Positions 6,044 to 44,516 of a stretch of DNA of 64,000 bases are shown piece after piece. The stretch lies in the NCBI GenBank assembly GCA_965222075.1, contig OZ244937.1, positions 4,448,001 to 4,512,000 of the forward strand, given 5' to 3'. Every line of letters starts with the position of its first letter. The stretch's first letter is position 1. Source of the DNA: Candidatus Latescibacterota bacterium (GTDB taxonomy: Bacteria; Latescibacterota; UBA2968; GCA-2709665). The translations under genes and the position numbers were made by a program. The notes below the pieces were generated by a model, which was given only the letters and a program-made list of their open reading frames with translations, was not told where the DNA came from and did not search any database.

Positions 6044-6130
6044 GCCGAAGTGGTGGAATTGGTAGACACGCTGTCTTGAGGGGGCAGTGAGGCACGCCTC
6101 GTCGGGGTTCGAATCCCCGCTTCGGCACCA
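6044..6130 (+). tRNA. tRNA-Leu (anticodon GAG)
   Basis: GCCGAAG acceptor stem pairing with CTTCGGC-ACCA, D loop GGAATTGGTAGAC, anticodon arm CTGTC-TTGAGGG-GGCAG, long variable arm, GTTCGAATC T loop, encoded CCA. Confidence 0.97.
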
Positions 6131-38672: not shown

Positions 38673-38785
38673 AAATGTTCACCGCGGTCACCATCGCATA
38701 GCAGAAATTTCCCCCTATGTATAAAAGGGCCTTCCAGACAGTGCTTCTGGAAGGCCCCCACCCCGAGAGTCCCGCCGGGTCGCCC

Positions 38786-39023
38786 CTACTTCTTCTTGGG
38801 CTTTGGCATATACTTTTTCAGCCGCTGCGAAATGATATCGGCCGTATAGGGTTTCACCACATAATCGTTCGCGTCCGCCTGAACTTTTTGGCAACCTTAA
38901 CTGTACGGGCGCGCTCAAATCCGACGTCATCCGCGCGATTTCTGCAGCTACGGACGATAGCGTCGGAAACTCCTGGGCCTCATCGATCAACCTTACCACA
39001 TCTTCTTCTGTTATGGTCCACAC
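38786..39023 (-). pseudogene. HDOD-domain / receiver-domain gene remnant with internal deletion
   Basis: N-term ..EFPTLSSVAAEIARMTSD (HDOD start) joined to an out-of-frame VQADANDYVVKPYTADIISQRLKKY..* (receiver C-terminus; TAG at 38786-38788). Confidence 0.7.
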
Positions 39024-39043: not shown

Positions 39044-39490
39044 CTACCCGTCGTCTTTCACCAGCCTCTTCCCGTCAAAAATCAGCTTTCCCTTCTCGTA
39101 GATACAACCGGTCTCTTCATCGAGCTCGTACTTCATCAACTGGCCGAGGGACAGATGGTCGAAGACCACCCTGGGATCTTCGTATTTCTCGATCAGCTTT
39201 TCAATAGGGCCTTCAAACTGAAGCTGCCGGCGTTTTGGTTTCTCCTTTTCACGCCGCTCTTGCTCCTCCTTAGAGAGAATAGGCAAACGCTCGGCAGCCG
39301 GCCCCAGCCTGCTGACGTATTCCTGCTGCCGTCGATACCGGTCATGACGCTTTTCAAGTTCGGACTTCTCCTCCACATTCTCGTAATATTCTCCGACCTC
39401 TTCGGCCTTCCGGCGAAATCGTTCTCGCTCCTCCTCTTTCAGATCGTCATTGCCCGCCTTCCGCATAATATCTCTGACGGACCTGTTCAT
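39044..39490 (-). CDS. Hypothetical highly charged protein
   Basis: 148-aa ORF, RBS GGAGG, promoter at 39567-39595. Confidence 0.75.
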   Translation of the reverse strand: MNRSVRDIMRKAGNDDLKEEERERFRRKAEEVGEYYENVEEKSELEKRHDRYRRQQEYVSRLGPAAERLPILSKEEQERREKEKPKRRQLQFEGPIEKLIEKYEDPRVVFDHLSLGQLMKYELDEETGCIYEKGKLIFDGKRLVKDDG

Positions 39491-39719: not shown

Positions 39720-40505
39720 ATGTTTCACTTCGACAAACTGGTAGAAATCATGGACCGCCTCCGAAGCTCCAAAGGCTGTCCCTGGGACCTGAAGCAGACC
39801 CACCAGACCCTCAGACCCTACTTGATAGAAGAGGCCTATGAAGTCTTAGACGCCATCGACAGCCGGGACGACCGTGCACTCCGGGAAGAACTGGGCGACG
39901 TCCTCCTCCAGGTGGTCTTCCATGCCCAGATCGCACGGGAAGGTGGGCGGTTTACCATAGACGATGTGGCCGCCGCCATTTCAGAAAAACTCATCCGTCG
40001 CCATCCCCACGTCTTTGGAGACATAACCGTAGACGGTGCGGACCAGGTGGTCGAAAACTGGGAAGCGATCAAATCGCGTGAACAGCGGCAAAAAGGGCAA
40101 CAGGACTCTGCCCTGGAAGGCATTCCCCGCCACCTGCCGGCCCTCCTCAGAGCCCGTCGTGTTCAGGAAAAGGCCGTCAGGGTCGGCTTCAAATGGGCCC
40201 ATTCGGACGAGGTCGCGCAAAAAGTCCGGGAAGAGGTGGCGGAATTCTTCGATGCACAGGCCTCGGGAGATTCCGCCAAAATCGGAGCGGAATTGGGAGA
40301 CGTCCTCTTCGCACTGGTAAACCTGGCCGGCTTTCTGCACATCTGTCCGGAGGAGGCCCTGCACAAAACCATCGAAAAGTTCCAGGTCCGCTTCCGCTTT
40401 ATCGAAGCCGAATTGAAAAAACAGGGCAAGCGGCCCCAAACGGCCACCCTGGAAGAAATGGATCTGCTCTGGGAAAAATCAAAAGAAGCAGGGAATGAGG
40501 AATGA
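39720..40505 (+). CDS. mazG: Nucleoside triphosphate pyrophosphohydrolase MazG
   Basis: LR...GCPWD.KQT, IEEAYEV, EELGDVLLQVVFH, KLIRRHPHVFG, ELGDVLF..VN. Confidence 0.96.
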   Translation: MFHFDKLVEIMDRLRSSKGCPWDLKQTHQTLRPYLIEEAYEVLDAIDSRDDRALREELGDVLLQVVFHAQIAREGGRFTIDDVAAAISEKLIRRHPHVFGDITVDGADQVVENWEAIKSREQRQKGQQDSALEGIPRHLPALLRARRVQEKAVRVGFKWAHSDEVAQKVREEVAEFFDAQASGDSAKIGAELGDVLFALVNLAGFLHICPEEALHKTIEKFQVRFRFIEAELKKQGKRPQTATLEEMDLLWEKSKEAGNEE

Positions 40506-40695
40506 AAGCATAGGGAAGGGTAATCCGCCCGCTTTTGGGGAGAGGAAAAGGGCCCTACTCCCTTACTGCCTACTCCCTCTTCCAACGCCTCTCTCACAGC
40601 ATCTAAGCGCGTCTGCATGAGGTCGCGCAGACGGTCTACATCGGCTGCGAGCTGCCTGCGCATCTGTTCACTGGCGGACGTGTCAGCAGCGCTCC

Positions 40696-41211
40696 TTAAC
40701 CATAGAAATCGTAGTATTTGGAGAGCTCCAACACCGGTATAGGCGCCTTTTCCCAGTCATGAATCCAGCAGATGAGACTGTCACATCCCAGATCATCCAG
40801 TCCCTGCTTCTGGAAATCGCTGCTCCTCACCAGGGTATGCGCCCGCACCAGCCGATCCTCCGAGGAAAGAACGTAGTGGGGGAACTCATCCTGCGACTTC
40901 AGTACCTCAAATCCCAACTTATTGTAGATCCGGATAAACAGCTCTCGTACATTGGTCGGGTTGCGCACCCCCGGATACGTGGCCAGACGCTCCACATGAA
41001 CATCTTCCTTCAAATACCGGTCAATCACCTCCAAAGCGGCTTCGGGAATGGCCAGGGACTTGGCGTTCTTCTTCGCCAGTTCCACCTCCACCCGTTTCAG
41101 GGTCAGTTCGGCCACCTCCTTGGACTCGCTTACCGATTTGCGCACCCGATCCCCCTCTTCATCATAATAGCCGATCCACCACTTCTTGCCACGCTGGTAG
41201 AGCCAAGCCAT
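40696..41211 (-). CDS. Integrase-arm-type DNA-binding domain fused to degenerate restriction-endonuclease-like domain
   Basis: MAWLYQRGKKWWIGYYDEEGDRVRKS..SKEVAE N-terminus; C-terminus LGFEV..SQDEFPH...CDSLICWIHDW...PIPVLELS; RBS before ATG 41211. Domain calls are from recall. Confidence 0.6.
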   Translation of the reverse strand: MAWLYQRGKKWWIGYYDEEGDRVRKSVSESKEVAELTLKRVEVELAKKNAKSLAIPEAALEVIDRYLKEDVHVERLATYPGVRNPTNVRELFIRIYNKLGFEVLKSQDEFPHYVLSSEDRLVRAHTLVRSSDFQKQGLDDLGCDSLICWIHDWEKAPIPVLELSKYYDFYG

Positions 41212-41286
41212 CGTCTGTTCACTCCCTCTCCGGTCTACGGTCCCGATTTCAACAACCCCCGGTCCCACCCTATGTTTATGCCTCTC

Positions 41287-41437
41287 TTATCCACAAATGG
41301 CCACATTGGCAGTTGACAAAAATATACACAACTATTTTATTTTATTGTATATTATGCACAAGAAGCTTGTTTATTGACACACGTTATTTTGTGGCTGTTA
41401 GCCACAAAATATCCCCATAAATATGGAGAAAACCACA
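41287..41437. promoter_or_regulatory. AT-rich DnaA-box cluster (candidate oriC or DnaA-binding locus)
   Basis: TTATCCACA 41287-41295, ATATACACA 41322-41330, TTATGCACA 41352-41360, TTAGCCACA 41398-41406, weaker boxes 41409-41437; perfect 12-bp dyad 41385-41411. Confidence 0.6.
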
Positions 41438-41470
41438 TCTCAAGGCAAGTAAATTCGCCTGCGCTTGCAC

Positions 41471-41504
41471 AAAAAACGGGCAGGCTGCCAACAACAGCCT
41501 GCCC
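41471..41504 (-). terminator. Intrinsic terminator of the 994-aa surface protein gene
   Basis: GGGCAGGCTG/CAGCCTGCCC stem followed by T6 on the minus strand. Confidence 0.75.
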
Positions 41505-41531
41505 CCTGATCCCACCGCGCTTTCAAACGGC

Positions 41532-44516
41532 CTATCGCAACAGCAGCATCCGCCGGGTCGCTTCAAACTCCCCCGCTGCCAAATGGTAGAAATAGATCCC
41601 ACTCGACACATTCCGTCCAAAGTCGTCCTGGCTGTCCCAGGTGACCCGGTAGCGCCCCGCCGGCCGCATCTCCTTCACCAGCGTCCGCACCCGCTGTCCC
41701 ACCAGATTGTAGACTGCCAGGTCCACCCGGGCTTCGGTCGGCAGCTCAAACGCAATGGCCGTTATCGGGTTAAAGGGATTGGGCACGTTTTGCAGCAGGC
41801 GAAATGCCCTTGGGCGAAGCTCCATCCGCTGCGCCGTCGGCAGACGTAAGGGTACGAATACCCCCTCATCGGTGATCACCATCCCCCTTTGTACCTTCAA
41901 CGCCACCCCAATGGCCTTCCCTATCGGCCGGAACCGGAGTTGAGCCAAGCGGCCGTCACCCTGTCCCACCCATCGCTCCTCGTCCTGTGCATACCCGCCT
42001 GCGATCATAATCGACCCGGATTCGTCGTGGTGCACCAGAAAGGCCCCGCCCTCGAAAGGCCCCTCAGCGCCCTTTCTTATGCCGAGGTACTCCGCCTCCA
42101 TAGGATCGTAGACCACCCGCAGCACATATCCCTGGGACGCAGGGATCGACTCGGCCTCCAGCCCTGCGACCACCTCGTCCGAAGCCCCCTCCAGCTGCTG
42201 CCACACCAGCGTGCCCGATGGGGGTGCAATCTTCCCCGCTCCGTTCATCAGCCGGACCAACACCAGGAAATCCTGAAAGTCGATCCGGCCGTCCTTGTTC
42301 AGGTCGAAGTGGGCGTCTGCATACCCCTGGGATTTGCCCATCATCTGCCTCACAAAGAGGACCAAATCAGCAAAGCCGACCAGGCCATCCCCGTCAAAAT
42401 CGGCCGGAGACCGCCGTGCCAGCCCGAAGAGGATATCTGCAAACGATTTCTCCTCCCCAACCACGATGGGTACTGCCTGGTCGGGTTTGGGCGTATCTTC
42501 ATAAAATTCGGCCACATAACCCTTGGCCTCGGCGCGCAGCAGATAGCGCCCGTCCCGCAGTCCGTTCAACTCATACGCCCCCGTCTGGACCGTCCGGGTG
42601 CTCCAGACCTCGGCCCGGCCGAGCTTCTGGGCCGCCACCACCGCTCCGGGAATGGGCCTCCCGGTCCCATAGGCCAGCACATAGCCCGAAATCAACCCGC
42701 CGCGCGTCAACGCGAAATCGACCTTTGACACCTCCTGACCCAACTCCACCTCCAGCCGTTTGGCCGCACCGGCGCTATCTGCCTCGCTGTACCAGGAGAG
42801 GATGTACCCCAGGGCCGATGCCCGTACAATATAGGCGCCTTCGGGAAGTCCGATAATACGGTAGGCCCCTTTTTCGGGATCCAGGATCTCCGCACGGAAC
42901 TGCTTTCGCACAATCGCCCTGTCCCGATCTCTGGACGGTGAAATCGAGACAGGCGGCGGAGCGTCCACAACCACCCCAGCGGATCCCGCAACCGCGGTCG
43001 TCCCACCCGACAGGGGGACCTGTCCGCCAACCGGGGTGCGCAACCGCGGCACCGGCACCGCCACCACCTCAATCCTCTTCAGAGCCCCATCCTCTACAGC
43101 GGTCACCCGGCCGGAAATAACCCCCAGCCTGGGCAGCACCACATCCATTCCTGTCACCACCTCCTCAACCCCCACCGGAATCTCTGCGGGCCCCGTGCCC
43201 TCGTCGTTCAGGTAGAACCGGGCCGCAAACCCCACCGCCGTTGCCTGCAGCGCGTAGGTCCCCGGGGGCAGGTCTTTAATCTGAAAGGTCCCATCCTTCT
43301 CCGTCTTCACCGCCCGCCCGGTCGGATGATGGGGCAAAACACGGTCCGGTTCCGCCCCTTCTGCCCCGTCGGACCGCCCGGGGGTGGTCAGAGGAACCCT
43401 GGGCTCAGGACGGCCACGTAAAAACACTACCGCACCACTCACCGGGTTCTCTTCTCGATCCGTTACCTTTCCAGAAACCGCACTCAGGCGCCCGAGGGCC
43501 AGATCAATCCCGGTGGTATGGGCGTTCGACAGCACCCGCACCGGATTTGTACCCTGACGTTTCAGGGTATTGGGATAATATTGGGCCGCATAGCCCTCGG
43601 CCCGTGCCCAGACAGTGTAATCGGCCCCGGGCAGGTTCGAAATCACATACGCTCCATCCTCTCCCGTATGTGCCTGCCTCCGCTTTCCCCCCGACCGGGG
43701 CTCTGCAACCACAAGCGCTCCCACCACAGGGTCTCCGCCCGTCCGGGCCGTTACCCGCCCAAAAATCGTCCCGACCGGCTTCAGCTGAAAATGGACGCCC
43801 GCAGGCTGGACCTCTAAGGTGACCCGTACAGGCGTCGCCTCGTCCCGCACGGCCGCGCCGTCGTAGAACACCCGCCCATACCCCTGCTTTGCGGCGGTCA
43901 TCAGATAGTTCCCGGGCGCCAACCCCGTCAACCGATACGTCCCGTCCTCGACCGTCTCCGCCGCCTGGCGGCGTCCATCGCCCACTACGGGCCACGCGAA
44001 GAGGGTCGCGCCTCCCATCGAACCCTCCCCGCTGTCCACCACCCGTCCCGAAACCCCCAGCCCTTCGGAGACCTCCACATCCACCCTCTCAATCCGATCC
44101 CCCACCCCAACCACAACCAGGCCGTTGCGCGTTCCGCCCGTGTAGAACGCCGTGAGATACCCCCGGGCCAGCACCCGCACCTGGTACTCCCCGGGCACGA
44201 GCCCTTCAATCAGATAACCCCCATCCGCCTGCAGGTGCGCCCCCCGGTGGAACGGCTCATCCGGAGAACGGCGCTCCGCCACCACCACGCCCACCGACGC
44301 CGGCGCCCCGGTCGCTTCATCCGTCACCTGTCCGGACAGGGTGCTCAGCGGGTGCAGCGCCACCGCCAGTTCCACACGCGGATGCTGCCGGTCCAGCTGC
44401 CCCTGGACGAATCCCGGAGGCGACGACCCCACCCTCCGCTCTTCCTCTGCATCCGCAAGCGTCGCTCCCAGTCCTGCTGCCAAAACAAAAAGACCAACCC
44501 ATTGCAGTAGACGCAT
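41532..44516 (-). CDS. Large secreted protein: carboxypeptidase-regulatory-like beta-sandwich repeats, dockerin/EF-hand pair, cohesin-like domain, FlgD-type C-terminal sorting domain
   Basis: Signal peptide; repeated ISG.V....G.P..GA.V...T..DG.Y....L.PG.Y...A...GY...FY; DFDGDG.VGF.D and DLNKDG.IDFQDF; LLQNVPNPFNP.T.I...SSGIYFY.L..G......RMLLLR. Confidence 0.85.
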   Translation of the reverse strand: MRLLQWVGLFVLAAGLGATLADAEEERRVGSSPPGFVQGQLDRQHPRVELAVALHPLSTLSGQVTDEATGAPASVGVVVAERRSPDEPFHRGAHLQADGGYLIEGLVPGEYQVRVLARGYLTAFYTGGTRNGLVVVGVGDRIERVDVEVSEGLGVSGRVVDSGEGSMGGATLFAWPVVGDGRRQAAETVEDGTYRLTGLAPGNYLMTAAKQGYGRVFYDGAAVRDEATPVRVTLEVQPAGVHFQLKPVGTIFGRVTARTGGDPVVGALVVAEPRSGGKRRQAHTGEDGAYVISNLPGADYTVWARAEGYAAQYYPNTLKRQGTNPVRVLSNAHTTGIDLALGRLSAVSGKVTDREENPVSGAVVFLRGRPEPRVPLTTPGRSDGAEGAEPDRVLPHHPTGRAVKTEKDGTFQIKDLPPGTYALQATAVGFAARFYLNDEGTGPAEIPVGVEEVVTGMDVVLPRLGVISGRVTAVEDGALKRIEVVAVPVPRLRTPVGGQVPLSGGTTAVAGSAGVVVDAPPPVSISPSRDRDRAIVRKQFRAEILDPEKGAYRIIGLPEGAYIVRASALGYILSWYSEADSAGAAKRLEVELGQEVSKVDFALTRGGLISGYVLAYGTGRPIPGAVVAAQKLGRAEVWSTRTVQTGAYELNGLRDGRYLLRAEAKGYVAEFYEDTPKPDQAVPIVVGEEKSFADILFGLARRSPADFDGDGLVGFADLVLFVRQMMGKSQGYADAHFDLNKDGRIDFQDFLVLVRLMNGAGKIAPPSGTLVWQQLEGASDEVVAGLEAESIPASQGYVLRVVYDPMEAEYLGIRKGAEGPFEGGAFLVHHDESGSIMIAGGYAQDEERWVGQGDGRLAQLRFRPIGKAIGVALKVQRGMVITDEGVFVPLRLPTAQRMELRPRAFRLLQNVPNPFNPITAIAFELPTEARVDLAVYNLVGQRVRTLVKEMRPAGRYRVTWDSQDDFGRNVSSGIYFYHLAAGEFEATRRMLLLR

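Follow-up and report, generated by a model that had tools for sequence, protein, structure and literature searches.

The gene P0002 lies within a 64,000-nucleotide stretch of contig OZ244937.1 from a Candidatus Latescibacterota bacterium (hereafter the window), and its features and those of its upstream region are collected in Table 1. A first-pass annotation had described P0002 as a 171-aa ORF with its own ribosome-binding site, and this reading was borne out on the minus strand, where GGAGAGGGAG occupies 41231-41222. P0002 is preceded by a gene for a 994-aa secreted-type protein and faces mazG. As the annotation had stated, there is no mobile-element context: neither a tRNA nor an integrase gene occurs near P0002, and the nearest tRNA is at 6044 of the window. 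Contigs from RNA libraries covered parts of P0002 in all four runs of one study, weakly, at a depth of 2-4; they left 41231-41537 uncovered, a gap that carries no weight.

Table 1. Features of P0002 and its surroundings (positions are those of the window)
Feature	Position	Strand	Description
Gene P0002	40696..41211	-	171-aa ORF: arm-binding domain, linker and pseudo-nuclease domain
Ribosome-binding site GGAGAGGGAG	41222..41231	-	Purine-rich, 5' of P0002 start; from sequence
Arm-binding (AP2-like) domain	41059..41211	-	Residues 1-51; three beta strands and a helix; from profile and model
Linker	40981..41058	-	Residues 52-77; variable, low confidence (pLDDT 55-59), indels
PD-(D/E)xK-fold domain without catalytic acids	40717..40980	-	Residues 78-165; from profile, alignment and model
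Predicted dimer surface			Residues 78-108 of the pseudo-nuclease domain
Predicted sigma-70-type promoter	41420..41448	-	TTGCCT (41448-41443), 17 nt, CATATT (41425-41420)
Box 1, TGTGGTTTT	41437-41429		Within the 17-nt promoter spacer
Dyad TATTTTGTGGCT-N3-AGCCACAAAATA	41385..41411		Predicted operator; ≈+8 to +24 relative to the predicted transcription start
Dyad core TGTGG-N7-CCACA	41390-41406
Tandem boxes TGTGGCCAT and TGTGGATAA	41287..41305	-	Downstream of the dyad, 10-bp period
Intrinsic terminator of the 994-aa gene	41471..41504	-	Isolates the P0002 promoter
mazG	39720..40505	+	Convergent (tail-to-tail) neighbour; given as genomic context

P0002 matched no family in Pfam, PHROGs, NCBIfam or PADLOC, including Pfam AP2; PADLOC models (library from 2023) matched 0/10 proteins scanned, and sequence searches of solved structures gave no meaningful match. 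The N-terminal half is nevertheless integrase-like, as had been read from its first ≈50 residues, in that residues 1-49 match the N-termini of tyrosine integrases. The family profile matches the first 50 residues of six ORFs of 346-409 aa bearing integrase catalytic motifs (Pfam Phage_integrase was checked for one of the six), profile comparison of the arm with integrase N-termini gave 98% probability over 47 columns (E 6e-14), and Pfam Arm-DNA-bind_4 appeared, below its cut-off, in two P0002 homologues. The arm was modelled as three strands plus a helix with pLDDT 89-96, and its structural matches include the lambda Int DBD (Z 4.4) and the HPI arm domain (Z 4.0, rmsd 1.5). Since unrelated PH-like domains reach similar Z values, the assignment rests on sequence, by which the arm is homologous to complete tyrosine integrases from this phylum. 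Beyond the arm there is no core-binding or catalytic (RKHRH-Y) domain of an integrase, the 171 aa being fully accounted for, and PF00589 gave no match at the locus.

The C-terminal half was likewise recognised correctly as restriction-endonuclease-like, since residues 85-165 match a large family with the pattern FPD..ExE..S.F..H.H..CD..CW.HDW. A profile search over proteins of all lengths gave 1018 cluster matches; the best 150 were nearly all to residues 80-168, and none of these 150 showed another full arm-plus-dead-nuclease architecture. The current model of P0002, built on a 107-row alignment, has a mean pLDDT of 87.6. In the structural check proposed in the annotation, Foldseek with this model gave nothing at E 0.001 or better, and matches overall were middling (Z 4-6; Foldseek E > 0.02). 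The alpha/beta core of the C-terminal domain was modelled confidently and its top structural rows belong mostly to the PD-(D/E)xK superfamily, the best being NucS (Z 6.3, rmsd 3.0 over 81 residues, itself a middling match).

The putative catalytic residues of this domain are replaced, FPD reading FPH and ExE reading HTL, and the replacement is a family trait. PD and ExE/K are kept in 131 of the 139 relatives that cover both sites, compared to 0/41 P0002-family rows, and P85, H112, H125 and L127 stand for E, D, E and E. The helix-1 E is present in 0/41 family rows and in 76 of 80 aligned relatives; the H.H motif seen in the nearest intact family is gone as well. H125 is invariant (41/41 core rows), with T in 3/8 distant rows, and might serve a new role; H112 is replaced by N in 11/41 family rows. 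Judged by the defining residues, P0002 qualifies neither as an integrase nor as an active nuclease, and the nuclease activity of the fold has presumably been lost; there is general precedent for inactive PD-(D/E)xK units (PMC3424549). The genome holds no intact paralogue of the nuclease domain. Among the proteins scanned, the nuclease domain of the nearest intact family had no match in Pfam, NCBIfam or PADLOC, and one weak PHROG match without an assigned function. The intact nucleases of the FPD..ExE..S.F..H.H..CD..CW.HDW pattern (P0055-P0193) form a large family, with no curated nuclease-domain model among those scanned, and are fused to HTH, RHH, homing-endonuclease repeats or replication proteins.

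A word-index search returned 44 P0002-like proteins among 83 candidates, the full-length ones being 56-85% identical and 167-179 aa long. The gene is single-copy in 28 of 168 phylum genomes (split over two contigs in one), and one further fragment lies at a contig end. By family, it occurs in 3/22 f1, 24/31 f2 (fragment included) and 2/3 f3 genomes, in 0/76 of f4 and in 0/36 of the other families; ten further genomes gave weak matches to one half of P0002 only, and no relatives were found in viral contigs. Across 17 g6 sequences, dN/dS is 0.07 in both the arm and the C-terminal domain and 0.21 in the linker, and mazG lies within 1.5 kb of the gene in 27/27 loci checked. The single copy, the synteny with mazG and the dN/dS together imply that P0002 is a maintained gene that was lost in some genera. 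A decaying integrase remnant without function would account for its absence from all 19 g2, g3 and g5 genomes searched, but the strong purifying signal in both domains and the constant length and position of the gene across three families make this reading barely credible, and a one-off remnant is ruled out by the same dN/dS and mazG synteny.

No partner gene travels with P0002. In g6, the 3' ends of the P0002 orthologue and mazG overlap by ≈18 nt. A minus-strand frame at 40502-40663 of the window contains the first and last parts of a 197-aa receiver-domain protein in one piece and looks internally deleted; the gene for this 197-aa protein lies directly downstream of the P0002 orthologue in L045. 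Divergent from mazG, a 148-aa protein of no known family (39044-39490, minus strand) is conserved with mazG in gene-less genomes too, and next to its gene a short minus-strand frame at 38715-39023 resembles the beginning of an HDOD-receiver gene, of which relatives have the full length. In several g6 genomes (L006, L007, L013, L019), the interval from an ornithine-cyclodeaminase-like gene to the P0002 promoter is a variable slot, occupied by toxin-antitoxin-like genes or other small ones.

The perfect 12-bp dyad that had been flagged upstream of P0002 is present at 41385-41411. Perfect 12-bp dyads are not rare in this genome (316 arm/spacer matches, many overlapping); by sequence comparison, this one is set apart by its conservation and unique sequence. 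It is the likely binding site. The dyad occurs in 29 of 33 distinct orthologous upstream regions, which share the order TTG(C/A)NN, 16-18 nt, TATTAT/CATATT/GATATT, TGTGG-N7-CCACA, and it starts 41-43 nt past the -35 hexamer in all 16 regions where both were matched; these regions are kin, not independent samples. At P0002 the promoter hexamers, though conserved in the alignment, have 8/12 consensus matches, because of which a consensus scan did not list this promoter; it listed two other candidates, both downstream of the dyad. A matrix built from 17 dyads scored the P0002 site, itself in the training set, at 35 bits (training minimum 26.4) and the next genome site at 15.9, and pattern and matrix scans found no second match in the genome. 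Seven g6 genomes hold a second TGTGG-N7-CCACA, which lies inside a coding region in the two examined; three other hits that were examined showed no pattern.

Around the dyad lie further boxes of the consensus TGTGG(C/A)(T/C)A, placed in the promoter spacer or beside the dyad and again 73-122 bp downstream, and some of them form tandems with a 10-11-bp period. The distances from dyad to downstream box in f1 and g6 are 101-104, 111 and 121-122 bp, and thus helix-phased (six distinct values; R 0.8 at 10 bp, p 0.003), but the phasing does not extend across all lineages (R 0.24-0.47). No boxes were found within 900 nt downstream of mazG in 5/5 gene-less genomes examined. Two g6 orthologues lack boxes (L016, L018) and two lack the dyad (L015, L017), with arm domains intact in all four. 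A perfect IHF-type site between the boxes occurred in only 4 of 28 regions, of which three belong to close relatives, and was set aside as weak.

The dyad could instead act as a hairpin in the 5' end of the mRNA, or be bound by another regulator, while P0002 does something unrelated to it. We regard this as highly improbable. A 12-bp stem does form in the predicted leader, and the arm domains stay intact where the boxes are lost; however, the leader has a folding z-score of -1.0, box 1 lies upstream of the predicted start, none of 7 loci matched Rfam, and the genome offers no other site for a trans-acting regulator. Moreover, the inner pair of the dyad is broken in 7/17 variants and compensated in none, as expected for two protein half-sites.

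The first-pass annotation had placed P0002 beside an oriC-like DnaA-box cluster and proposed an origin- or replication-linked regulator. The perfect TTATCCACA 76 bp from the start is there (41287-41295), but the oriC-like region is not: the site has this one perfect box and three boxes within one mismatch, a cluster tied third in a genome that has 41 perfect TTATCCACA in all. The top cluster lies directly downstream of dnaA at 4.036 Mb, ≈454 kb from P0002, with three perfect boxes and, within two mismatches, 11 boxes compared to 7 at P0002. Nor is the adjacency conserved, since only 4 of 33 orthologous upstream regions have a perfect DnaA box, and in five single-contig genomes the gene and dnaA are 0.45-2.7 Mb apart. 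The GC-skew minimum, in a noisy stretch at 4.22 Mb, is ≈190 kb from dnaA and 270 kb from P0002. An oriC at the P0002 site was rejected, on the distance to dnaA and its box cluster and on the divergence of the P0002 boxes from the DnaA box.

That the boxes are read by DnaA, or that P0002 acts at the origin, is accordingly very unlikely in our estimation. The one perfect DnaA box speaks for it, as do the oriC and the P0002 promoter being the genome's two AT-rich clusters of TGTGG(A/C)(C/T); and TGTGGATA makes up 7/122 boxes, through which DnaA could co-regulate in f1, the only family in which the second tandem box equals a DnaA box. However, 104 of the 122 boxes upstream of the gene carry C at a position that is A in DnaA boxes, and neither TGTGGC(C/T)A nor the N7 dyad occurs in the oriC regions of 10/10 genomes. 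Compared with oriC and other DnaA-binding loci such as datA and DARS, the P0002 intergenic stretch is similarly AT-rich with one perfect DnaA box, but its boxes diverge at a conserved DnaA-box position and the true origin is elsewhere.

Several other elements stand elsewhere in the genome. The likely oriC downstream of dnaA (G000:C1:4034598-4034920) carries repeated boxes of the TGTGGATAA/TGTGGAAAA type and a TGTGCACAG pair, which is also present in five gene-bearing relatives examined. Upstream of dnaA (G000:C1:4037132) lies the palindrome TACAATATATTGTA, which resembles an NrdR box; the same element occurs in most g6 leaders of the P0002 gene and is absent from the P0002 leader here. G000 also contains dozens of copies of a dispersed palindromic repeat, GGCCTTTTTCTTG-N6-CAAGAAAAAGGCC (for example at C1:281908, 391186 and 430390), and a second such repeat, AGGGGCGGTTCGCGAACCGCCCCT.

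Structure prediction suggests that P0002 pairs through its dead nuclease. The predicted homodimer scored 0.71, compared to 0.00 for the best of three controls, and this mark was reached by 20/30 solved homodimers and 1/23 monomers; at least 88% of contacts were common to runs, with pLDDT of at least 73. Seven interface residues (Y79, R89, E90, L91, R94, L104 and S106) are fixed in both branches of the dead clade. Conservation of the interface compared to the rest of the domain is 0.88 and 0.73 in the P0002 family and 0.36 and 0.56 in intact relatives, figures in which positions are not independent and for which the same alignment fed the dimer prediction. A dimer carrying two arm domains on loose linkers would fit a two-fold operator and the bridging of distant boxes.

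Taken as a whole, an operator in the promoter of the gene itself is a better reading of the boxes than an origin, and we consider it probable that P0002, as a dimer, binds the dyad together with nearby boxes and thereby represses its own transcription. In this model, P0002 would pair via the dead nuclease and place its two arm domains on TGTGG(C/A)(T/C)A boxes, one dimer spanning the dyad just past the predicted transcription start, while dimers bound to the boxes in the spacer and to those 73-122 bp downstream could bridge the DNA or fold it into a loop, much as the arms of integrases do on attachment sites. The promoter, the fold and the dimer in this model are predictions, whereas binding, repression, looping and the descent of the boxes from an attachment-site arm are inferred. 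Its weakest step is why a cell would keep a repressor with its own operator alone, since no second operator was found in the genome and hence no regulon accounts for the strong selection. Most likely, the feedback would hold the level of P0002 constant, and the dimer domain or the arm would have a second target.

A source for the boxes is suggested by the related integrases, which carry TGG(A/T/C)CAC repeats with an 11-bp period at their 3' end in 6 of 11 intact cases by a script that required TGG, and in two more by eye; a tRNA lies beside 7 of the 11. P0002 boxes and the arm-site consensus have only TGG-(A/C)-(C/T)-A in common, and TGTGGACA occurs nine times among the P0002 upstream boxes. 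The P2-type arm consensus is given as tgTGGaCa (PMC3448106), and arm domains are described as directing integrases to arm-type sites (PMC8138268). Autoregulation through such sites has been reported for IntS, which represses its own gene from arm-type sites that overlap its promoter and for which, in that report, single arm-site mutations left repression in place (PMC2951348).

The same resemblance raises the prospect that P0002 guards against or senses integrative elements, by occupying their arm sites or by being titrated off its own promoter. The box consensus does overlap the putative arm repeats of related integrases, and an autoregulated, single-operator design suits titration. Yet each of the two f3 genomes that carry the gene has three such integrases, and none was found in 21 g6 genomes (20 with the gene) or in 15 g2 genomes (none with it), which implies that presence of P0002 does not track protection; an anti-integrase role thus gained no support from presence and absence. 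The integrase repeats, moreover, end in CAC, and the P0002 boxes mostly read CTA. We therefore hold such a role to be distinctly improbable. Scarcely more promising is a domesticated mobile-element sensor composed of an integrase arm, an attachment-site operator and a dead-nuclease dimeriser, in which incoming arm sites or integrase would lift repression. Its output would come via P0002 itself or via read-through against mazG, for which the overlap of the 3' ends in g6 would give an opening.

A more serious alternative, though still an unlikely one, is that the dead-nuclease dimer is the working part, acting on a partner, a ligand or damaged DNA or through histidine-based chemistry, and that the arm and boxes control expression, with LexA-type control taking over where the arm has degenerated. 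Distant relatives with degenerate arms, in which the N-terminus is short or has diverged, form one clade with the P0002 family (support 98 in a quick tree) and keep the dead domain and the interface residues. They have no dyad in 4/4 distinct loci, which are near uvrC (3/4) or lexA (1/4) and, by eye, have upstream boxes in 3/4 like GAAC-N4-GTTC, presumably a LexA-type motif. Because these relatives lost arm and boxes and kept the dead domain, that domain may be the working part, and the invariance of H125 in core rows would suit histidine chemistry. On the other side stand the lack of a co-travelling partner gene, the substitutions of H112 by N and of H125 by T described above, and the P0002 promoter, where by eye we saw no box like those before lexA and recA; LexA control of the P0002 copy was rejected for this reason. 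A working dead domain can be compatible with autorepression.

The candidate LexA box of the lineage, ≈TG(A/C)AC-N4-GT(T/G)CA, occurs before lexA (twice) and recA (G000:C1:741500-741890 and 2386500-2386750). Three degenerate-arm relatives sit among GAAC-N4-GTTC-like boxes beside uvrC (L082:3800-5950, L084:1600-2720 and L088:3500-5500), the UvrC proteins of these loci being 56-60% identical to UvrC of f1-f3 genomes, and L082 and L084 have a conserved non-coding stretch (≈L082:5848-5920) with no Rfam match.

Among known systems, P0002 shares the N-terminal three-strand-plus-helix domain with tyrosine integrases that have arm-binding domains (P2-like, lambda, Tn916), and its boxes resemble the sites of these integrases in their likeness to tgTGGaCa and their 10-11-bp tandems (PMC3448106, PMC8138268). 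Unlike these integrases, it has no core-binding or catalytic domain, tRNA or attachment site, is vertically inherited at a fixed locus, and has an inverted dyad as its main site. IntS of prophage KplE1 has arm-type sites overlapping its promoter, and P0002 likewise has arm-like boxes over and just past its own predicted promoter; IntS, however, is a full recombinase on a prophage, whereas in P0002 only the regulatory half would remain, joined by a different domain. In contrast to PD-(D/E)xK nucleases (the NucS C-terminal domain, AF1548, XisH, Hjc, I-Ssp6803I), P0002 lost all four acidic positions and the H.H of its nearest intact family, and only within the dead clade is its predicted interface conserved. 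The AP2/ERF and ApiAP2 factors have the same DNA-binding fold class and a proposed origin in mobile elements; P0002 differs in being bacterial, derived from integrase arms directly, and fused to a pseudo-nuclease.

By analogy, P0002 would be like an autoregulated integrase cut to its regulatory half, a new architecture with a known kind of control. A literature search, with coverage mostly outside subscription journals, found no description of the family. The view of P0002 as a DNA-binding protein domesticated from mobile-element parts is supported in its anatomy, loss of catalytic residues, domestication and DNA-binding role, and the finding has no bearing on replication control. It does point to a large PD..ExE nuclease family (the 1018 cluster matches, mostly to the C-terminal domain of P0002) for which no curated model was found. 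If autorepression is correct, P0002 would be a case of a nuclease fold turned dimerisation module, with a predicted 17-bp operator on offer, and a bacterial transcription regulator built from two mobile-element parts whose binding site apparently came from there too, so that prokaryotes would offer a counterpart to the proposed origin of AP2 factors.
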